A stretch of 64,000 bases of DNA, from positions 864,001 to 928,000 of the forward strand of contig CAVXRD010000002.1 of the NCBI GenBank assembly GCA_963764165.1, in the 5' to 3' direction. The notes beneath the pieces were generated by a model. It was given only the letters and a program-made list of their open reading frames with translations. It was not told where the DNA came from and searched no databases. This DNA comes from an uncultured Verrucomicrobiae bacterium (GTDB taxonomy: Bacteria; Verrucomicrobiota; Verrucomicrobiia; Limisphaerales; Palsa-1400). Position numbers and translations under genes: made by a program. Each line of letters starts with the position of its first letter. Position 1 is the first letter of the stretch. This document shows positions 1 through 64,000 of the stretch, one piece after another.

Positions 1-2
1 GG

Positions 3-2342
3 CGGCTGAACGCGGGCGCGGCACCTAAGACCGCAATCGTAGATTTAAAAACACTCAATACCGCGTTTCGTCGGGCAGAGGCTTTCGGAACCATCCTAAA
101 AAATCCGGTCGCCGCGATCCGTCCTCCAAAAGACGAAAGTTCCGAGCGGGATGTATTCACACATGAAGAGGTTCAAAAGCTCATCGCGGCTGCGCCGTCG
201 CTGGATTGGGAGACATTGATTCTCCTGGGGTATTTCGTCGGCGCGCGGCTGCGAGATTGCGTCCAGATGAAATGGGATAATGTGTTCCCTGAGCAAGGTG
301 TGATCATCTACAACCAGCAAAAGACGGGTAAAAAAGTGATTGTGCCGATGCACCACGAAATCATCAGGCATATCGAATACAAGATCCAATTCGGGACAAC
401 TGGTTACCTGTGTCCGAAATTGGCGGAGAAAGGGCCTGGAGGTAAACACGGATTGTCCGAGGGGTTTAAGCGTATAGTGGTTAAGGCGGGCCTGGACCTA
501 ATGGTCATCCAAGGAAAGGGCTCGCGGAAATTTTGCCGACGGACATTTCACTCGCTCCGTCACAGTTTCAATTCAATATTGGCCAACGCTGGGGTTTCGG
601 ATGAAGTCCGGATGAAATTGACCGGGCACAAGTCAAAGGAAATGAATATCCGAACGCACCAGAGGTTAATGGAGTCTACGCGCCTCAATTTTACGGTTTT
701 CTTGGAAGGAAAGCCAATTGACGAAGATGCGGTAGCTCTTTTTGACCAGCGCCGTATCGAGAGCGGAGAACGAATCCCATTGGGAAGGCACACGGTCACC
801 ATTCGGCACCCGAAAGCGGATGCCTTTTCTACGAATTTAGTTGTCTGGTATGGAGCGCAGAACTTGGGCGCTGTCAGTTTGAAACGAAGCATGGGAGCCC
901 TCGCCATCACTGCAAATCCACGGGCCGGATTGATCACGATTCAGGGACCGGAGTTTTCAACCAAACTCACTAATTCCGCCGGGATGACGCTAAATGTCCC
1001 CACAGACCATTACACGGTCGAGGCGTCCTATGCCCACTGGCAACAAGCGGAAGAAACCACTGTTGAACCCGCGCATACGGGTGCCTGCGCATTTGCTCCG
1101 CGCCTTGGAGCGATGCAACTGGCGTGTGGTCAGCCAGAGGCGTCATTCCAATTATTCAAGGCCGACGGGCAGTTGCTGGAAGCTGGGAATTTGCCTGCGC
1201 TGCTCGTCGAAGTCCCGGAAGGCAACTACCAACTTATCAGTTGGCATCACAAGCATAAGAAAGATCAGACAGTGGCCGTGACGGCAGCGACAACCAATAG
1301 CATGGAGATCGAATTCGTGTATGGGGCCGCCCGATTGGAAACGACCCCATCGGGCGCAACCGTCCTCACTGATGGTCACCAATGGGGCGTAACGCCAATG
1401 CTTTTTTCAGAGCTGACCACCGGGCGGTGGCATTTTGAACTGCAATTGTCCGGCTATTCGCCGGTGGATGCCGTGGTGGACGTCGCCGCTCGGGAAACGA
1501 ACACATTCGTGACAAATCTGGTGAGCATCAATTACGTCCCGGCCATGAATGCTGCCCGGCAATATCTTTCGGCGGGCGATTATGACAAAGCCTTCAGGGC
1601 TGCGGCCGAAGCCTTGGAAGTGAAACCGAACGACCCCGAAGCGATGACGCTCCAAAAAGAGGCGACTGGCAGACGCCATATCCGGCAGGCTGAAGCATTG
1701 GGCAAACGCGGCGATTACATCGGCGCGGATAAGGAATTGGAAGCGGCGCTCGAATCATTGCCGGACAACGATGAGGTGAAACAGCTACTGGCGGATTTCA
1801 AGACGCGGGAACGTGGACAACTGGAACAGTTACAACAGGAACGGCGCGAACGCGGTCAAAAATTGTTCGACACTATTTTGTCTCGATTCAAGGATGCAGA
1901 ATTATTTGACAGTCATGAAATCAAGACCACAAGGCCGCTCAACGAAGTGCAAACGGCAATTCTCAGTGCGCTGAAAATCCGCCCGGAGTTTCGTGTTTTG
2001 AAGTCAAGGTCGAGCGTTGCTGAGACATTCGAAATCAGTGCCGTCCAAGAACTGACCGGAGCGCTCGCCACGAGCGCCGGGCGCCGGCAATGCGTAATTG
2101 TGATGGCTCAAACGCGAGATGATGAAACGCAAATCCTTTTCAAAGTTCTGGAATTCAAAGCTCATCACAGCGTTGGGACCAAAGGGCTGTTGAATTTGAC
2201 CGATAATGTCACGTTCATTCCTGTCCATCCGTCGCGGATTCCTGATTTCACCGACAAGCTGAAATCGCAACTCGAGGAGGGAACGAAAATGGTGACGGAT
2301 CGGATTCAACAAGCAATCGGGGGTGGTTCGGAGAAGAAATAG
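3..2342 (+). CDS. Tyrosine recombinase catalytic domain (5' end outside window) fused in frame to a PEGA-like/TPR protein
   Basis: Frame is open from base 3 (KNPVAAIRPPK..ERDVFTHEEV). Motifs GARLRD, QQKTGK, FHSLRH and TGH are present, but no catalytic Tyr follows (EMNIRTH). Downstream: PEGA-like LETTPSGATVLTDG..GVTP and TPR-like helices. Confidence 0.75.
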   Translation, partial: RLNAGAAPKTAIVDLKTLNTAFRRAEAFGTILKNPVAAIRPPKDESSERDVFTHEEVQKLIAAAPSLDWETLILLGYFVGARLRDCVQMKWDNVFPEQGVIIYNQQKTGKKVIVPMHHEIIRHIEYKIQFGTTGYLCPKLAEKGPGGKHGLSEGFKRIVVKAGLDLMVIQGKGSRKFCRRTFHSLRHSFNSILANAGVSDEVRMKLTGHKSKEMNIRTHQRLMESTRLNFTVFLEGKPIDEDAVALFDQRRIESGERIPLGRHTVTIRHPKADAFSTNLVVWYGAQNLGAVSLKRSMGALAITANPRAGLITIQGPEFSTKLTNSAGMTLNVPTDHYTVEASYAHWQQAEETTVEPAHTGACAFAPRLGAMQLACGQPEASFQLFKADGQLLEAGNLPALLVEVPEGNYQLISWHHKHKKDQTVAVTAATTNSMEIEFVYGAARLETTPSGATVLTDGHQWGVTPMLFSELTTGRWHFELQLSGYSPVDAVVDVAARETNTFVTNLVSINYVPAMNAARQYLSAGDYDKAFRAAAEALEVKPNDPEAMTLQKEATGRRHIRQAEALGKRGDYIGADKELEAALESLPDNDEVKQLLADFKTRERGQLEQLQQERRERGQKLFDTILSRFKDAELFDSHEIKTTRPLNEVQTAILSALKIRPEFRVLKSRSSVAETFEISAVQELTGALATSAGRRQCVIVMAQTRDDETQILFKVLEFKAHHSVGTKGLLNLTDNVTFIPVHPSRIPDFTDKLKSQLEEGTKMVTDRIQQAIGGGSEKK

Positions 2343-3491: not shown

Positions 3492-4343
3492 CTACTCGGC
3501 TTCGTCAAATGTCCTGCCAAGAACGAAGTCCGCCGCCCGCTGGGCCTGCGCAGCCGCCTGGACGATCAGTTTCTTGTCTTCTTTGAGGCGTTTCAGCCAT
3601 TCAGCGACATACGCCGCCGAATTGTGGATGGTGCGCTCACCGATCTCCGCTTCTCCGCAGAGAAACGCCGCCCCAATTTCGGCGATCAGTTCCTCCCGGC
3701 AATACGGGTCAGAGCCAAATCCGCCTTTCTCAGTCAAGGTTGACCGATTAAGCCGGTTTTGGTGACCGCTTGCATGGACAAGTTCATGGAAGAGCACCGC
3801 ATAATACTGCGCCGCGCCCTCGAACCGATCCATTCCCGGCATTCCAACGTAATCCTCGGCAGGCGAATAGAATGCCTTGGTGAAGCCATCCTTGATGGTG
3901 GGCTTCTGTGGCATGTTAGCAACAATTTCCTCCGGCTTGCGCGGGAGTTCATTTGCGCCGTTCGCTGCTGGATGACTATTTTTCAATCCCTCGCATTGAG
4001 CGACGTTGAATACGAAGTAATTACGAAGCAGCGGTATGCGCTTCTTTTCCTCGGACTCTTTGTCATCGACGGCGAGTCTCTTCCAAAAGACGACAGGACA
4101 CGCCTTTTCGCCTTTCTTGACTTTGCCGCCAAGCGCGTTGGCTTGGCGAAAGGTGAGCCAATACGGCGATTCGTAGCTCCTACCGAAAAGCAGAAGCACA
4201 TTGATTCCGCGATACGGCTTTTTGTTAATGAGATTCCGGGGCATGGTCGTGGATGCTTTCCACGTCTTGTGCCAGGGAACGGTCCCTTGCTCAAGCAGAG
4301 CGATGATCTGTTCCGTGATGCGGTCATACGCGTTCGCGCTCAT
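3492..4343 (-). CDS. ardC: Antirestriction protein ArdC (ssDNA-binding domain plus zincin-like metallopeptidase)
   Basis: PWHKTW, YRGIN, WLTFRQA, VFNVAQC, HELVH zincin motif, EELIAE. Confidence 0.9.
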   Translation of the reverse strand: MSANAYDRITEQIIALLEQGTVPWHKTWKASTTMPRNLINKKPYRGINVLLLFGRSYESPYWLTFRQANALGGKVKKGEKACPVVFWKRLAVDDKESEEKKRIPLLRNYFVFNVAQCEGLKNSHPAANGANELPRKPEEIVANMPQKPTIKDGFTKAFYSPAEDYVGMPGMDRFEGAAQYYAVLFHELVHASGHQNRLNRSTLTEKGGFGSDPYCREELIAEIGAAFLCGEAEIGERTIHNSAAYVAEWLKRLKEDKKLIVQAAAQAQRAADFVLGRTFDEAE

Positions 4344-4652: not shown

Positions 4653-5153
4653 TTAATCCTGGATGTAGCCGAGTCCTCGCAACGAGCAGTGCGTGGGATT
4701 CCCAACGACTATATGGTCAAGCACCTCAATCTTGAGGAGTTGCCCGGCCCGGACGAGGTCCCGCGTCGCTCGAATGTCTGCATCTGAGGGCTGCGGTTCA
4801 CCGGATGGGTGGTTGTGCATGAGCACGACGGCGGATGCGCCAGCAATCACCGCGCACCTGAATGTCTCCCTGGCTGACACCAGGATGCAATCCAATGTGC
4901 CAATGGACACGAGTTGGTGTCCTTTCGCTTTGCGCCGAGTATTGAGGAGGATAACCACAAAGCATTCGCACTCGGGATTGAATTGAGGCGAAGTAGCGAT
5001 GTGAAGCCTCCAATACTCAACTGCTTTTTCCGGCGTGTCGCAGATTTGCAATCTGTCCGGCGTGGGACATTCGCGCAGGGCGACAACTTTCCATTCCTTG
5101 GGCTGATACTTTGGTTTCTCTTTTTCGGGCTTGAACAAGGGTATCTGTTCCAT
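4653..5153 (-). CDS. radC: RadC-like JAB domain protein
   Basis: ECFVVILLNTRR, HNHPSGEPQPSDAD JAMM motif, LDHIVVG. Confidence 0.9.
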   Translation of the reverse strand: MEQIPLFKPEKEKPKYQPKEWKVVALRECPTPDRLQICDTPEKAVEYWRLHIATSPQFNPECECFVVILLNTRRKAKGHQLVSIGTLDCILVSARETFRCAVIAGASAVVLMHNHPSGEPQPSDADIRATRDLVRAGQLLKIEVLDHIVVGNPTHCSLRGLGYIQD

Positions 5154-5272
5154 CGTATTCTCTTTCTTGCCGTCCACCCGTTGACGCGGGTTGCTTCTGG
5201 TTTTGAGTATTCTCGCTGGAAGCGCGGACGGCGCTTTGTTGAGCAGCAAGATCTTTTGGTGGATGCGTTCAA

Positions 5273-7055: not shown

Positions 7056-7358
7056 TTATTCGTTCTCGAACGCGTCGATGGTTTCCCGAATCTCCAGTTC
7101 CGTGAGTGTCCAGCCTGCGCGTGGCAATGCGGCCACAACGGCGGACTTGAAATCTTCATGCCAGCCTATGGCGTCTGCCTCGTTGTCGAGACAATCTGCC
7201 AAGAGTGCCAGCGCCAATTGCGCCGAGCCGCTGCCGACATCGCCCCACTCAAACCCGGTCGGACTGTGATTCCACAAGTCCAGTCGGGAATTGAGTGGTT
7301 GGCCGCCAACGGTGACCACTACGCCCTGCTTCGTTCGTCGTCCTTCGTATCGCTTCAC
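7056..7358 (-). CDS. DUF6166-like protein
   Basis: NHSPTGFEWG..GSGSAQLALALL signature. Confidence 0.75.
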   Translation of the reverse strand: MKRYEGRRTKQGVVVTVGGQPLNSRLDLWNHSPTGFEWGDVGSGSAQLALALLADCLDNEADAIGWHEDFKSAVVAALPRAGWTLTELEIRETIDAFENE

Positions 7359-8401
7359 GCGGCACCCCCAAACAATTGGGACACCTCGTCTGCGGACAGG
7401 TGCTCGGGCTGGGTGCCGGGTTTCTCGAACTGATGCACCTTGACGAAACAGAATTTGGCGAGGCGGGCGGCGATGTCATCGCGCCCGGCCCGGCCAGCAT
7501 CGTCTTCGTCGAGCATGACAATGACCTGGCTTTGTCCATCGGTATGCTTGCGGATCAATTCTTCCTGGCCAGCGGACATGGTGCTGCCCATGAGGGCAAC
7601 GACCTTGCGGCAACCGTTCTGGTGAAGTTTGATGGCGTCAAAGAAGCCCTCGACGATCACCAGCGGTTTTTCGGGTGGTTCTTGGATGGCCCGGTTGAGG
7701 TTGAACAATTCCAGCCCCTTCCTGAAACCGGTGGGCAACTTGTATTTTGGCGTGCCGTCTGGCGGATTGCCCGGCCATCGCCCGGCATACGCCACGAGTT
7801 CACCTTTGACGTTGTTTATTGGGATGGCGATGCGCCCCACCATCAAACCTTTGTCGCCGGTGAAATAACCGAGTCCAAAGTCACCTATGGTCTGCTCGTT
7901 TATACTGCGTTCCGCAAAATGCGGATGCGCCCGATCCAGCTTGTCCAGCCGGAATCGAAGTGGCGGATTTGGCGTCGTGCTCTCCGGTGCCAGGACTGGC
8001 GCCGGTTTGGGGTGCCTCGCGACATTTGCTTCCGGCGGTTGGTCTGCTGCGGCCTCTGGCTCATCCTTTGAGCCGTTGGTCTTGACGTCATCAATGGGGA
8101 CACTGAACCACTCGCACGCTCTGAGTGCGGCGTCGTGAATCGAGATGTCCTCCTTTTTGGCGATGAAGTCCAGGGCGTTGCCGCCGTGTTTGCACTCACT
8201 GAAACAATTCCAGAGATTCTTCTCGGTATCGACGCGAAACTGCGTGGGATTGCTGCCGTGGTGGATGGGGCATGGGCCGCTGAGACGGCTGCCGCTGCGT
8301 TTGAATGTGCCAAGAACACCATAGTGTTCCAGCACCCGTTCCATTGTGACACGGGCGCGAATGGCCCGAAAATCGACAAATGGCTTTCTGCTCGTGGACA
8401 T
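7355..8401 (-). CDS. DnaG-like DNA primase (CHC2 zinc finger plus TOPRIM)
   Basis: CPIH..WNCFSEC zinc finger; VEGFFDA and LDEDDAG TOPRIM motifs. Confidence 0.9.
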   Translation of the reverse strand: MSTSRKPFVDFRAIRARVTMERVLEHYGVLGTFKRSGSRLSGPCPIHHGSNPTQFRVDTEKNLWNCFSECKHGGNALDFIAKKEDISIHDAALRACEWFSVPIDDVKTNGSKDEPEAAADQPPEANVARHPKPAPVLAPESTTPNPPLRFRLDKLDRAHPHFAERSINEQTIGDFGLGYFTGDKGLMVGRIAIPINNVKGELVAYAGRWPGNPPDGTPKYKLPTGFRKGLELFNLNRAIQEPPEKPLVIVEGFFDAIKLHQNGCRKVVALMGSTMSAGQEELIRKHTDGQSQVIVMLDEDDAGRAGRDDIAARLAKFCFVKVHQFEKPGTQPEHLSADEVSQLFGGAA

Positions 8402-8521: not shown

Positions 8522-9436
8522 TTACAAGAGAGTTTCTTTATTGGCGCGTCCAGACAGCCAAGGCAAGGTCAGGACATTCTCGGCAGATGAAAGCGAAGCG
8601 AAATCTGCGAAAAGAAACAGACCGTGTCCTTGTTCAAGTTGAGCACATGCCTCCACCATGTGCTGTCGCCGTTCGGCGGCGGTGGTCACTGTCAAAACAC
8701 GAAAGCGGTCAAAATCAAATAGGGAACGATGAAGGCCCTGGCGCCACGTCGCTTCGTAGGCGAGGAGTTTTCTGTAGAAACTGCTTTGATCCAAACCGTC
8801 TCGCGTGACCGGCATTGTGCCGCGATCCGCTTCAAGGAAAAACCAAGAGAGAATTTGGCGTCCGCTTTTATCAGTAATCTCCAATCCGAAAACCCTGTCA
8901 GGAATGACACCGCATTTGATGCCGCTGGCGACGTTCACTTTCCACTGGAATGGCTCACGCTGGCGTGCCGCGGCAATCGGGATCGCCGCGTCATCCGGCC
9001 TGATCAATTTTACACCCGCCTGATTTCGGCATGCGACTTCAAACGCAACCATTACGTCGGAAATCAACAAGGCATGATCGAGGAAAATTCGGCCAACGCG
9101 ACTCTTCTGCCCCCATTCGAGGCGGTGATAGGGAAATCCCAGTTCGCGTTTCAAAACCGCAGCACCTTTATTTCCGATCCCGTAAACCATCGGACGAGAA
9201 CCGTTCTGATAATAGTCGATTTGACACCGTGGCCGTTCCAGAAATCCATGGTGATAAAGCAGTTGAAGCCGCCGAAGAATCTGCTGCTTGCTGCCGGGAA
9301 GAAGCGCGCAAAGGTGGCCGGATCGTAAAAATCTGTGGCTGCTGACATGTTTGAGAATTTTCAAGTCGCGTTCGGTCAACCGAAAGCGGGAAATATTCTC
9401 TGATCTATTGAAACGGGGAAGTCGGACAGAACACAT
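8522..9436 (-). CDS. Replication-relaxation family protein
   Basis: LTERDLKIL N-terminal wHTH, LDHAL, IPDRVF, FLEADRGTM, FRVLTVT. Confidence 0.85.
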   Translation of the reverse strand: MCSVRLPRFNRSENISRFRLTERDLKILKHVSSHRFLRSGHLCALLPGSKQQILRRLQLLYHHGFLERPRCQIDYYQNGSRPMVYGIGNKGAAVLKRELGFPYHRLEWGQKSRVGRIFLDHALLISDVMVAFEVACRNQAGVKLIRPDDAAIPIAAARQREPFQWKVNVASGIKCGVIPDRVFGLEITDKSGRQILSWFFLEADRGTMPVTRDGLDQSSFYRKLLAYEATWRQGLHRSLFDFDRFRVLTVTTAAERRQHMVEACAQLEQGHGLFLFADFASLSSAENVLTLPWLSGRANKETLL

Positions 9437-10253: not shown

Positions 10254-10502
10254 CTATTCCCGCGCCTCGCGCTTCGCCTGTTTCAGCACGGCCTCAAAAT
10301 CAATGCCAATGGCATCGCAAATCCGCAACACGGTGTCCAGCGTCGGATTTCGTGTTTCCGTCTCAACATAACTGACCATTTGGCGCGACAATCCCGCCGC
10401 TGTCGCCACGGCTAATAGCGACAACCCGCGCTTGTTACGCTCTTCGCGCAAAATGCGCGCGACAGCGGCGCAGATCGCGCGACGAGCTTTTTCAGTTGCC
10501 AC
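10254..10502 (-). CDS. XRE-family HTH regulator
   Basis: LREERNKRGLSLLAVATAAGLSRQMVSYVETETRNPTLDT. Confidence 0.85.
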   Translation of the reverse strand: MATEKARRAICAAVARILREERNKRGLSLLAVATAAGLSRQMVSYVETETRNPTLDTVLRICDAIGIDFEAVLKQAKREARE

Positions 10503-10526
10503 TCCACATACCTAGCAGAAAAAAGG

Positions 10527-10555
10527 TTGACAGTGGAGGCCACTATAGTTACCTT
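10527..10555 (+). promoter_or_regulatory. Promoter divergent from the XRE gene, with an inverted repeat in the spacer
   Basis: TTGACA-17 nt-TACCTT; AGTGG-AGG-CCACT palindrome overlaps the spacer (candidate operator). Confidence 0.5.
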
Positions 10556-10561
10556 TCTGGC

Positions 10562-10801
10562 ATGTTTATGAAGCGAATTGGCCCGGACCCGCATGCGGAC
10601 GGCGCACGAACGTTTGCCTGTAACGGTTGCCCCGACATTCGGGAGCTCGAAGGTGGCGATTTCGCCATCATCGGAACCGACATCTGTGATTTGGCAGATC
10701 GGCTGCCGTCCTCTGCCAATTGCGGGCCCGACGAACGGATTATTCGAATCCCGCGCAAGACTCTTGTTCTGGCCAAGCCTGACATTCCGGACAGCTTGTA
10801 G
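10562..10801 (+). CDS. Small hypothetical protein
   Basis: MFMKRIGPDPH..CNGCPDI..DFAIIG; directly follows the promoter. Confidence 0.6.
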   Translation: MFMKRIGPDPHADGARTFACNGCPDIRELEGGDFAIIGTDICDLADRLPSSANCGPDERIIRIPRKTLVLAKPDIPDSL

Positions 10802-10841
10802 GTTTGGACCATTCGCGTCGGTGCGGTATAATCACCGGTAA

Positions 10842-11294
10842 ATGGGCATTCACGAGTGGTTTGGACAACATTGGTTCGATTTGTTTCAAACGGTGGCTGT
10901 TGTGGGCACTGTGATTTTCACGGGCCTTGCCCTACGAGACCAAACACGCGCCCAACGTCTGACGAACCTTCTCATCCTGACTGACAGCCATAGGGAAATC
11001 TGGAGCAACTTGTTCACATTTCCCGATTTGGCACGGATTCTTGAGCCGTCGCCTGACCTGGATAAAAATCCGACGAACGTAAGCGAACAGCGTTTTGTGG
11101 TGCTGGTAATTCAGCACGTCCATTCCACCTACCAATCGGTCAAGGAGGGCTTGGTGGTAAAGCCGGAATCGCTATATCGGGACGTGGCCTCGTTTTTCAA
11201 ACTTCCCATTCCAAATTTGGTTTGGAATCAATTCAAGCATTTGCAGGACGACGATTTTGTCGCTTTCGTGGATTCTTGCTTAGAATCGGAGTAA
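10842..11294 (+). CDS. Hypothetical protein with an N-terminal membrane helix
   Basis: Hydrophobic FQTVAVVGTVIFTGLAL; upstream TTGGAC-17-TATAAT. Confidence 0.7.
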   Translation: MGIHEWFGQHWFDLFQTVAVVGTVIFTGLALRDQTRAQRLTNLLILTDSHREIWSNLFTFPDLARILEPSPDLDKNPTNVSEQRFVVLVIQHVHSTYQSVKEGLVVKPESLYRDVASFFKLPIPNLVWNQFKHLQDDDFVAFVDSCLESE

Positions 11295-12591
11295 CGGACG
11301 GGGTCTCCATCCAGCGCCTTAGCCGCTGCTCGACCAATATCCTCGGGGTGGCAAACCTCTCTCGCGAACGGAGAACGTGGCGCTGGGGGTGGCGGCCATG
11401 ATTTGCCAACGGCTGCGACGTGGTTCCTCTGAAAGGCACCTTATCCTGACCGTCCTCCATAAGCTTCGCCAGCACCTCGTAGCGGTTCAGGTCAACGAAC
11501 TGCTTTGCAACAAACTCGTTCCCAAATTCTTTTTCCAAAACCGCCGCATCCGTCTGGCCAATCCGAAATGCAATCGTGCTGCCAACATTTCCAAAGACGG
11601 CCTGGCGGACAGGGAGGGTAAGCTGATCGACATACTGATGCGACAGAGTCAGGCAAAGACGATATTTCCTGGCTTCAGCCAGCAAAGAAGCGAACGCATC
11701 GGTGGTGAAGTTTTGAAATTCGTCGATGAAAAGAAAAAAATCGCGGCGTTCTGTTTCGGGTTGACTGGCGCGGGCCATTGCCGCGAGTTGGAATTGCGTA
11801 ACCAGAAGCGAACCAAGCAGATTGGATTTATCATGGCCCAACTTGCCTTTGGAGAGATTGGCGATGAACAAGCGCCTGTTGTCGGTGATGAATTGGAAAC
11901 TTACCTTGCGCTGCACCTGTCCCAAAATGTTGCGGATGACTGGACTCAAAAGAAGCTGGCCGAGTTTGTTTTGGATTGGCGCAATCGCTTCTCGCTGAAA
12001 CCGGGCATCGTAACCAGCATATTCCTTTTCCCAAAATTCGCGGATGAACGGGTCTTTAATTTGGCGGATTACCCATGCGCGGTAAGGGTCATCGGTGAGC
12101 AACCGATTGACGCCAAGCAGGGAAGTGTTTGGGCATTCCAAAAGCGCGGCAATCGAATTGTAAAGAATATACTCCATCCTTGGGCCCCATGAATCCCGCC
12201 AGATGCTTTTTAGAGCTCCAACAATGCCTGATGCAACCAGATGTCGTTCATCAGTCGGAACATTCGCCAATAGATTCAGTCCAATCGGAAAATCCAAGTC
12301 AGCGGGATTGAAATAAACCAGATGGTCCGAACGCGCAGCGGGGATGTGATTTAACAGTTCCTCTGCCATGTCGCCGTGGGGATCGATAAAACCAACACCA
12401 TGCCCGAGGGAAATGAGTTGAATAATCCAGTTCCGAAGCAGGGTCGTTTTGCCGGAACCTGTTTTTCCGACCACATAGACATGGTGCCGCAATTCGGGGA
12501 TTTGGATTCCGAATGGTATTGGCTGGCCCCAGCCGTCGCGGGAGCCGATGTTGATAGTGTTGTCATTCATGATCGCAGACTCAGCCGTCAC
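11233..12591 (-). CDS. Type IV coupling-protein-like / HerA-FtsK superfamily ATPase
   Basis: Walker A GKTGSGKT, IDPHGD, Walker B FIDEFQNF, EARKY, SHQY; alternative ATG at 12570. Confidence 0.85.
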   Translation of the reverse strand: MTAESAIMNDNTINIGSRDGWGQPIPFGIQIPELRHHVYVVGKTGSGKTTLLRNWIIQLISLGHGVGFIDPHGDMAEELLNHIPAARSDHLVYFNPADLDFPIGLNLLANVPTDERHLVASGIVGALKSIWRDSWGPRMEYILYNSIAALLECPNTSLLGVNRLLTDDPYRAWVIRQIKDPFIREFWEKEYAGYDARFQREAIAPIQNKLGQLLLSPVIRNILGQVQRKVSFQFITDNRRLFIANLSKGKLGHDKSNLLGSLLVTQFQLAAMARASQPETERRDFFLFIDEFQNFTTDAFASLLAEARKYRLCLTLSHQYVDQLTLPVRQAVFGNVGSTIAFRIGQTDAAVLEKEFGNEFVAKQFVDLNRYEVLAKLMEDGQDKVPFRGTTSQPLANHGRHPQRHVLRSRERFATPRILVEQRLRRWMETPSVTPILSKNPRKRQNRRPANA

Positions 12592-13390
12592 TCCCGGCCA
12601 TATCGAAAATTCCCCGTGTCAGTTGAACTTTCGACAAAGAAACGCCGCACCGGTGTCAGGCGTTTGAATGGCTGTTCCCGGACGGGAACCATTGGCAAAC
12701 GCTGTTGGGTGCGAGCCAACGGGGTAATGGCGGCTGAGTCTGAAACCCGAAGATACTCATTTTAGCACGGGAAGTTGGCGCGCTGTGCGCGGCTGCTGTG
12801 GATTGGCCGCGTGGCGGCGACACGGGTCAAAATCGGCGGGGCGCTTTTTCCAGGATGCAAAAGCGGAGGTTCGTTCCGCAGGAAACCGTCGTCTCGTGCT
12901 CCGCGTACTCACACGGAGTCGTTGGGCGAATTCGCCCGCGCTCGTGTGTCCGATAGGACTCTCTATGAACCCGTCCCCCCAACGTGTCGGCGGTTAAAGG
13001 ACGATAGGACTGGCGCGGCCGACTTCGCGCTTTTTGGTGAGAGACGACGGTTAGGAGGAACGAATCCCGATAGCCACCTGGAAAAAGCGCGAAGTCGGGC
13101 GTTAGCCGACGACACGTTGGGGAAGTCGTAAGGCCCCGTTGAGCCGTAAAACTCTCGTCGGCGCGATCCGCGCCCCTACATACCATGTATGTAGCCCCTC
13201 GTTCCCGGCACTCATCAAGGACAATACCGCATCGGCGCGATTGGTCATGGTGTAAACTAAATGGGCAGACCGCCGATGCCGGAATGTCAAGCAAAAGGAG
13301 TATTGATTGGAGCCATGTTCGCGCCCAGCGAACCGAAATAGGTGGAGCAAGCCGCGCGACGTGCGCAGCAAGTAACATCCGAATGGGTTA
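12575..13390 (+). other. Large, highly structured non-coding region (ncRNA or ssDNA origin/promoter)
   Basis: More than 10 hairpins and several 12-17-bp long-range complements; wobble pairs read as G-T on the + strand. Confidence 0.6.
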
Positions 13391-13393
13391 AAA

Positions 13394-14191
13394 CTACCCT
13401 GATTTCGGCTGCAACGGCAGCCTAACCGCAAACTTCTCGTCTCGACTCTGGCTTGCGAGGCGAGGTGCCATTTCGCGAAATACCGTTATGTCGCGGATTC
13501 TCTTTTGCCAAGGGTCGCGGTGTCGGAAAAGAACCTCATCCAATGACCCTCCTATCATCCCAACACGAGTTTTAGTGTGTTCGTATGAGCCTTTTCTGAC
13601 GCGGTATGCGATTAAGTCAGCCGCCTGAAGCGGGGTGCAGTCTTTGTCGTCAACAAAGGCCACTGATGAAAACCGAGGATGTTTGATTTTTTGTTTGTTA
13701 AAAACTTCTTTAAAGGACTTAATCCAGTCTGACTTGTTACTATCGCAAAAAAAAGACACCCCATCTGTGTTGCGGGGCCAGTGCAAACTGATTGTTTTTC
13801 CAACACTTTCAAAGAACGCCTCAAACAAAACCGGAAAAGGGTCATCCGGGTCGCCAGTTGCGACATAATCCTTTAAATTGAACATTGAACCGACCGGCAC
13901 TTGTTGCCCCGCTACGGCGGCAAGCTCAAATAGAAAAGTGTCGCGGCGCATTTCCCCCCAGTTGTAATAAGGGCTTTCTGGATCATGTTCGGAATCTCTA
14001 AGTGAGAAAAATTCCCGACAGTGAAAGTGGGAAACGCCATATTTTTTTAACACCGACTCCCAATGCCAACGAAATTTTACCCATTCTTCTACATCGCCGA
14101 TGTATCCTCCGAAAGTCGGAGCTTCCGAGCCACGGAGTCTTCCCGACCGATCATGCGTCCCGGATTCGTCTGCATAAACAACAAGGTTCAC
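13394..14191 (-). CDS. Second DUF3800 family protein
   Basis: VYADESG, FFCD, PLQAADLIAY; GTG start at 14191 chosen. Confidence 0.8.
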   Translation of the reverse strand: MNLVVYADESGTHDRSGRLRGSEAPTFGGYIGDVEEWVKFRWHWESVLKKYGVSHFHCREFFSLRDSEHDPESPYYNWGEMRRDTFLFELAAVAGQQVPVGSMFNLKDYVATGDPDDPFPVLFEAFFESVGKTISLHWPRNTDGVSFFCDSNKSDWIKSFKEVFNKQKIKHPRFSSVAFVDDKDCTPLQAADLIAYRVRKGSYEHTKTRVGMIGGSLDEVLFRHRDPWQKRIRDITVFREMAPRLASQSRDEKFAVRLPLQPKSG

Positions 14192-39524: not shown

Positions 39525-39917
39525 GCGGCTTCCGATTCCCGGATTCCTGGCAAAAATCGTTTCTTCTTGAGGTGTTTCCCAAGGGGTGTAGGCCCTTTTC
39601 GGTGTCCATATAGGCGCAACGTCCTTTCGAGAGACGAATACGATGCAGTCGCAAAAAAGGCAATATCGCGCACGCAGGACAGCGAAATACGAGGTTTGTC
39701 ACCGAATGGAGTCTCAGGAAATGGATTCCGAGGAAAACGGGCATCTTATTCTCACTCCGCACGTTGTGAGAATCGCTTTAACCTGCTGCAAATGCAGGGC
39801 TTTCCGAGGCGACTTCAAAAATCTCGCTGCTGTTATTCTCACTTTTATTCTCATTATGTGAGTTTTGGGAGTGCGTTAATTTCATAAGCGCTTGAACATC
39901 AACGCACTAATTGTGAA

Positions 39918-39947
39918 TGGAGCGGGTGAAGGGAATCGAACCCTCGT
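39918..39947 (-). other. 3' fragment of tRNA-Gly (att-site duplication), not a full tRNA
   Basis: ACGAGGGTTCGATTCCCTTCACCCGCTCCA = T-arm, acceptor 3' strand and CCA; 5' half absent. Confidence 0.85.
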
Positions 39948-40063
39948 CTCGATGACTCGCATTGAGTGCATAAAAATTCGCCGCGCTGGCGCAAATGAAT
40001 GCGCTGATCGATCGCACCGGCATCGGTGCTTGAAAATCCGCCGGCGTATGGGAAGATAGCCGC

Positions 40064-61015: not shown

Positions 61016-61131
61016 ATCTGGCGGCGTCCTACTCTCGCAGAAGCTATACAACTACTACCATCGGCAAGACTGTGTTTGACGGCCGTGTTCGGGATGGGAA
61101 CGGGTCGGACCACAGCTTCATAGCCACCAAA
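61016..61131 (-). rRNA. rrf: 5S rRNA
   Basis: Reverse complement contains CCGTTCCCATCCCGAACACGG, GCCGATGGTAGT and GAGAGTAGGACGCCGCCAG. Confidence 0.95.
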
Positions 61132-61249
61132 AAATTGTCAAAAGATCGTGCTGGAAACGATTCCAGGAATATTCACTGAAAACTACACACAGAACAAAGG
61201 ACACAGCAATCCAATTCGCGAGTTGAAATCACTTATTCTCCGAAGAGAA

Positions 61250-64000
<2,751 letters not shown>

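Follow-up and report, generated by a model that had tools for sequence, protein, structure and literature searches.

The window analyzed in this work is a stretch of 64,000 nucleotides from an uncultured Verrucomicrobiae bacterium (contig CAVXRD010000002.1) and harbors an island of ~40.5 kb with a tyrosine integrase at its left edge. The island is bracketed by two identical tRNA-like direct repeats, presumably of tRNA-Gly, one at 39922-39953 on the + strand and the other next to the integrase, about 537 nt outside the left end of the window. Tandem TTATTCTCAC-like repeats, which are probably integrase arm sites, adjoin both att copies (window 39830-39860, L001 19560-19585). On the − strand, a DUF3800 gene is followed by the structure studied here and then by genes for a coupling-protein-like ATPase (TrwB_AAD_bind, DUF87; 11233-12591), an HTH protein, a Replic_Relax protein (8522-9436), a predicted DnaG-type primase with CHC2 zinc ribbon and Toprim domains (7355-8401), a DUF6166 protein, a RadC/JAB protein (4653-5249) and an ArdC-like anti-restriction protein (3492-4343). 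The primase gene cluster is found in 46 loci. Two small + strand genes with no Pfam match lie between the ATPase and HTH genes (10496-11294) and occur in ~23-24 relatives; at the other end of the window, 5S and 23S rRNA genes occupy 61016-64000 on the − strand. The island thus carries an integrase, att repeats, a relaxase candidate and an ATPase, and no mating-pair gene was found among the ORFs scanned, the cargo ORFs at 22-40 kb lying outside the scan. An integrative mobilisable element with its own coupling protein and a MOBC relaxase is described for Streptococcus in the available part of PMC5704250.

Two sister elements in the same genome share the structure; their recombinases are of the serine type, and they have an additional coupling protein of larger size. 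They end in large serine recombinases (L023 13357-14952, L025 7575-10386), which adjoin tRNA-Ser and a comM-like (Mg_chelatase/ChlI) gene, so that one backbone is associated with three integration modules in a single genome. The integrase frame of the studied island (window 1-2342, L001 19589-20000) continues stop-free into a PEGA/TPR protein, and what the sister elements have at that end is instead a serine recombinase together with a coupling protein of 1050 aa; the island therefore looks truncated or chimeric.

The Replic_Relax protein (Pfam Replic_Relax, E 1e-19) is a MOBC-like relaxase candidate with invariant residues P179-D180 and E202-A-D204. It has no sequence relative in the PDB. Its structural model (pLDDT 87) contains an N-terminal winged helix (Z 10.8, rmsd 3.0, 80 aligned) and resembles restriction enzymes weakly (BstEII, E 1.7e-3; MunI, E 0.05). 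As modelled, this layout matches the description of TraX given in the available text of PMC12857230, short of proof. In related loci, a HTH_36 winged-helix gene, a possible initiator, often lies directly upstream of the structure in the same orientation (L035 3009-3542, L102 5640-6065); in the studied copy it was not seen there. A gene with WGR and ATP-dependent ligase domains (L057 15376-16491) recurs in 7 related loci and could be relevant to DNA rejoining, if the relaxase makes no covalent link.

Between the DUF3800 and ATPase genes lies a non-coding element of ~360 nt (12841-13196), a candidate oriT and single-strand initiation signal, with the + strand as the putative folded strand. A preliminary description of this DNA had proposed two competing multi-stem hairpins at 12841-13122, sharing the segment 13082-13090. 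All arms were recovered at the positions given and the shared segment was borne out; the span corresponds to the core of a larger conserved unit that reaches 13196. Fold A consists of helix A1 (12841-12854/13077-13090; 14 bp, 100% paired, conserved core 12842-12851), helix A2 (12868-12877/13057-13066, with one G.T on the + strand) and helix A3 (12884-12895/13041-13052; 12 bp, 100% paired); the arms of A2 and A3 (12868-12895) are less conserved and their partners fall inside the loop of fold B. Fold B is formed by two perfect helices on the + strand, the outer helix P1 (12977-12989/13110-13122; 13 bp) and the inner helix P2 (13019-13035/13082-13098; 17 bp). The switch segment (13077-13098) can therefore pair either through 13077-13090 with its distal partner, the left arm of A1, or through 13082-13098 with its proximal partner, the left arm of P2. 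The left arm of P1 is nearly invariant and is a probable protein-binding site. At the outer edge of the element, a conserved palindrome with 8-bp arms and a 3-nt spacer (H0; 13176-13194) is a candidate relaxase binding site or alternative nic, and a further conserved motif (13136-13146) lies outside the long helices.

Several local motifs accompany these helices. A small + strand hairpin with a c(GATA)g loop (12947-12960) has further CGNTAG copies at 13002, 13068 and 13100, and the CGATAGGACT repeat noted earlier is indeed present at 12951 and 13002. The + strand motif GTCGGG (13094-13099), of which GTCG is invariant, marks a candidate nick at 13093/13094, and is followed by the DNA mini-hairpin GCGTTAGC (13099-13106, + strand), a sequence reported for St-1/alpha3 primase origins. 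The 14-bp palindrome that had also been pointed out exists (12925-12938), but in our alignment only one close relative shares it. Conservation extends from 13196 to about 12840 and then across a promoter region up to the ATPase gene. The ATPase leader of ~160 nt (12600-12757) is conserved, contains hairpins (12576-12595/12723-12742) and may be a cis-regulatory RNA. Behind the DUF3800 gene (13220-13398), there is a hairpin at 13220-13237/13271-13288, and the stretch 13251-13398 matches another genome (G010, locus L029) without the rest of the element. Folding of a 306-nt region of the element was more stable than that of shuffled sequences on both strands and with both RNA and DNA parameters (z = -3.8 to -4.4; equalled by 0/100 shuffles) in the comparison with shuffles that the preliminary description had suggested as a check.

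Homologues were detected by profile HMM. Using the ATPase, we fetched 80 loci, whose titles mostly name Verrucomicrobia. Upstream sequence of 700 nt or more was available for 62 of them, and the element lay upstream of the ATPase gene in 60 of these 62, with a profile built largely from the same loci. A single-sequence search gave the same picture, and in a metagenome set picked by a 28-nt DNA motif alone the ATPase was downstream in 44 of 49 sufficiently long loci. The element is thus intergenic and upstream of a coupling-protein gene, where MOBC oriTs sit according to the available text of 10.1101/2024.01.30.577996. Position alone proves little, since the positions of known sso are flexible, as indicated in the accessible part of PMC5703833. 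In a phylum-wide sample of 401 genomes, the exact motif was present in 2, and a DNA match was present in 12 of 61 relatives. No DNA match was found in the plasmid collection, in which one relative of the relaxase (41%) belongs to a Bradyrhizobium plasmid that has neither the ATPase nor the element. In viral contigs, one of 120 pattern loci was a true copy, also upstream of the ATPase, and no relative of the relaxase was found. Some copies have no ATPase nearby (L011 5320-5520, L015, L021, L112, L118, L119, L147); certain of these are truncated past fold B or trailed by inserted genes, and they are possible orphan origins mobilised in trans. A description of the element was not found in the searched literature, which did not extend to subscription papers or to bioRxiv supplements that may list MOBC nic sites; as far as these searches reach, this would be the first origin proposed for these Verrucomicrobia islands.

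Both folds are conserved by compensatory change. The main alignment (alignment A1) contained 68 of the 73 full-length copies, L011, L015, L021, L100 and L109 being omitted as truncated, divergent or near-duplicate. For fold B and H0, both-sided changes were seen in 18 of 38 pairs and 95% of cells pair, with a covariation score matched by 0/500 shuffles; helix P2 contributed both-sided changes in 11 of 17 pairs, and there is hardly any variation in P1, outer P2 and H0. In the 10-bp core of fold A, both sides changed in 7 of 10 pairs and 92% of cells pair. This pattern recurs in independent metagenome copies: a distal helix with 9 or more bp and no mismatch was present in 53 of 84 non-redundant copies, and a copy's own switch segment outscored foreign segments in 70 of the 84. 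When 160 copies were pooled, 123 passed the length and register filters, and 83 of these had a distal partner matching at 9-10 of 10 positions, against 1/123 in shuffled windows; perfect partners accompanied 11 different fold A cores. Parsimony on a tree of the 97 copies scoring at least 8 gave 37 compensatory changes and 46 breaks. A distal partner above chance was missing in 26 of the 123 copies, including the divergent L078/L100/L106/L109 group. Fold A is therefore dispensable and can be lost. Taken together, selection acts on both of the competing long-range pairings, which are real. Helix A2 and the palindrome hardly occur outside the studied copy and its close kin, as might be expected of a recent inverted duplication or of chance pairing without function; covariation in 68 aligned and 84 metagenome copies makes that explanation hardly credible for the element, and a recent duplication without compensation, which had been named as the result that would overturn the proposal, is refuted by the compensatory changes in the two folds.

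No reading frame is conserved in the element, lengths modulo 3 being distributed 25/20/23 among the 68 copies, in agreement with the earlier statement that it holds no credible ORF; a peptide-coding or type I toxin reading was ruled out on this ground. In Rfam 15, nothing reached the gathering score in the window region or in five homologous loci (best 17.8 bits vs 65.3), and the three matches returned were at chance level (E 0.14-4.2). A likely promoter of the transfer operon, an extended -10 (TGnTAnnnT) at 12759-12767 on the − strand, was found in 49/115 copies vs 5/115 shuffles. Since this site is downstream of the folds, both folds are probably upstream of the operon mRNA, and their reading as a 5' leader was rejected.

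Fold B looks like a DNA structure that belongs to the + strand. The B domain was more stable on the + strand in 54/54 copies, by a median of 7 kcal/mol, and the mismatches in P2 read on this strand were mainly G.A (32), G.T (22) and G.G (8), against A.C (5), C.T (4) and C.C (4). The GCGNNAGC motif occurred 168 times on the + strand (13.6 expected) vs 3 on the − strand, the + copies being spread over 62 of the 68 rows, and 139 vs 16 times in the metagenome set outside the anchor, in counts that take in homologous positions and are thus not independent. RNA-type CGNRAG loops were depleted (46 vs 99 expected) and the third loop base was T in 231 of 281 hairpins. Mini-hairpins of this type are far more stable as DNA than as RNA, bind SSB poorly and are found at the G4/St-1/alpha3 and RSF1010 priming sites, according to the available text of PMC13037366. 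Strand-specific hairpins with DNA mini-hairpin loops, which characterize primase-dependent ssi, are therefore present in the element. The near invariance of P1, outer P2 and H0 is what protein-binding sites show, and the pairings might be imagined as co-evolving operator or relaxase sites in duplex DNA; however, neither the freely varying compensated pairs of P2 and A1, with their 11 perfect cores, nor a strand asymmetry of 54/54 is expected of such sites, and we regard this as very unlikely.

The same data bear on an RNA switch, which might be a + strand antisense RNA folding into A and then B, a ColE1-type gene-sense primer RNA or an sRNA for mobilisation as in SGI1, whose mobilisation needs an sRNA encoded beside oriT (available text of PMC9299015). 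A + strand RNA is indeed predicted to follow the same A-to-B order as DNA, the + strand has 11 c(TTCG)g loops, and A3 contains G.U-type mismatches. On the other hand, the loops favour GNTA and avoid GNRA, the commonest mismatch in P2 is G.A, CTTCGG is without strand bias (15 vs 13), no sigma-70 consensus site is present in 12600-13450, an internal -10 (TAnnnT at 16-18 nt) exists in only 26 of 120 copies, and an Rfam match is absent. We therefore consider an RNA switch improbable as an account of the element. The preliminary description had left ssDNA and RNA side by side as carriers of a conformational switch: both the surrounding genes and the DNA-type loops agree with the ssDNA option, and RNA is disfavoured for fold B only, the RNA option for fold A being one that still has to be reckoned with.

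Fold A is less clearly tied to a strand. The A domain is about strand-neutral, being lower in energy on the − strand in 36 of 54 copies with a preference of only about 1 kcal/mol, and the mismatches in helix A3 favour the − strand (G.T 27, A.G 15, A.C 3; 78 of 127 copies have the helix). Thus, the two folds might be divided between the strands of an opened origin, fold B on the + strand and fold A on the − strand (as DNA or gene-sense RNA), giving two signals of opposite direction as in RSF1010 ssiA/ssiB and no switch within one molecule. The DNA minimum free energy folds of the studied copy are just these, B on + and A on −. In addition to the G.T-rich mismatches of A3, a T to C change in the switch was compensated distally in 17 copies and proximally mostly not, and GNA-type triloop motifs of the distal half (offsets 180-299) number 57 on the − strand vs 14 on the + strand. 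Nevertheless, the − strand minimum free energy fold is still fold B in 52 of 54 copies (pB 0.81), so that such a division would need proteins to overcome fold B on that strand; together with the slight strand preference of fold A, this makes it a rather unlikely arrangement.

In the studied copy, fold A and fold B are within 1-8 kcal/mol of each other. This is not the case in the family. In the 54 of 68 alignment rows that have both helices in register, the median cost of forcing fold A with DNA parameters was 12 kcal/mol on the − strand and 17 kcal/mol on the + strand, and with RNA parameters 15 to 18 kcal/mol, in a comparison that used pseudoknot-free folds, though fold A pairs for the most part with the fold B loop. 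The term bistable used in the preliminary description therefore goes too far, although two selected pairings do compete; with fold B ahead by a median of 12-18 kcal/mol in 54 homologues, equilibrium bistability was rejected as a family property, near-equal energies being essentially confined to the studied copy. Fold A is better read as a transient fold that depends on a nick or on the strand than as an equilibrium alternative, and the overall interpretation given earlier is partly supported. When the + strand was folded up to 13091, fold A was obtained in 30/30 and 25/25 copies, and up to 13093 in 49/54, an outcome that is partly by construction since these ends cut away part of P2; with ends at 13097-13098 the folds were mixed, and with the strand lengthened to 13125 fold B was obtained in 30/30 and 25/25. 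The offset behind this succession is real: the bases specific to A come out first and those specific to B last, as in toehold strand displacement.

From the observed conservation, position, covarying pairings, + strand bias of fold B and DNA-type loops, we infer a mechanism whose steps are conditional. An origin that acts as single-stranded DNA is likely. That the element is the transfer or replication origin of a MOBC-like integrative mobilisable element, acting as a folded + strand, is the fuller version that we favour on balance. An A-then-B order on one strand is a plausible part of it that we hold with some doubt. The + strand is antisense to the transfer operon; as the transferred strand, it would put the operon in the trailing region, as is usual. 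The Replic_Relax protein would bind H0 or P1 and nick the + strand within the element or a short way past it, so that the element would be displaced last and exposed from low to high coordinates. As long as the strand ends near 13093, or is not unwound further than that, pairing of the switch segment with its distal partner would form fold A. Upon completion or re-closure of the strand, bases 13091-13122 would serve as the toehold of fold B and displace fold A. Fold B, with its SSB-resistant GNTA mini-hairpins, might then be the start site for the element's primase, which would make the complementary strand towards the operon.

The position of the nick would decide what the switch reports. With a nick at H0, it would report completed unwinding. 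With a nick at 13093/13094, the linear strand would end in fold A, and fold B would need re-closure; whichever position is used, the element's primase would start from fold B. The sequence at this candidate nick was GTCGGG in 123 of 160 copies, GTCGGC in 25 and GTCGCG in 12, the anchor pattern having required this region. GTCGGG is identical to the 3' half of nic in CloDF13 as quoted in PMC5935869; the match is of 6 nt and concerns the 3' half only, and GTCG is invariant at four places. A nick-gated DNA switch, in which the cut falls in the right arm of fold B and the linear 3' end is held in fold A, is a tentative proposal that we think unlikely as it stands. If true, DNA folding would couple circularisation to complementary-strand priming. 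This question is of interest given that the available text of PMC12857230 reports no covalent DNA intermediate for MOBC relaxases and treats strand handover and rejoining as an open question; for HUH relaxases, nic-adjacent hairpins that form in the recipient are known (available text of PMC4176350). The element offers a defined origin candidate of which more than 100 variants exist in nature; it has a candidate nick, and its two pairings can be separately mutated and compensated. Moreover, covariation-backed alternative folds in ssDNA have seldom been documented.

Among known systems, the element is closest to MOBC oriTs such as those of CloDF13 (MobB/MobC) and pAD1 (TraX), which are likewise intergenic and followed by genes for a coupling protein and then a relaxase. 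Its relaxase candidate has a modelled N-terminal winged helix as TraX does, its GTCGGG matches the 3' half of nic in CloDF13, and a conserved site is ~80-100 nt from the candidate nick, comparable to the distance of 70-120 bp between binding site and nic for TraX. In contrast to CloDF13, the 5' half of nic differs and the set of five direct repeats is absent. Unlike MOBC oriTs, the element is a covarying structure of 360 nt with two alternative long-range folds, and it has no plasmid DNA match. Its GCGNNAGC mini-hairpins, including the St-1/alpha3 sequence, recall the origins of G4/St-1/alpha3, for which a hairpin-to-mini-hairpin change has been proposed (available text of PMC13037366), and the ssiA/ssiB signals of RSF1010, which, like the element, encodes its own primase. 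It differs from these primase signals by its much larger size, by two to three mini-hairpins per copy, by an alternative pairing over about 250 nt, by a primase of the DnaG type and by its location on a chromosomal island. For MOBC systems, the available part of PMC11541004 reports no leading-region enrichment of anti-defence genes. With ssoA/ssoU and Frpo, which function on one strand only, the element shares a long imperfect hairpin; unlike these RNA-polymerase-primed signals, it has no conserved -35/-10 pair in the stem, and its place is next to the transfer operon, at the putative trailing end and not in a leading region. Mutually exclusive pairings also link the element with plasmid antisense and primer RNA switches such as ColE1 RNA II and the IncI pseudoknot, and with the sgm-sRNA of SGI1. 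Like a pseudoknot, fold A uses the fold B loop for most of its pairs; in contrast to these RNAs, the element has DNA-type loops, lies upstream of the operon promoter and is without ribosome-binding-site coupling. By analogy, the element would appear to work like a MOBC oriT joined to an initiation signal of the G4 or RSF1010 type, and is a candidate member of either group.
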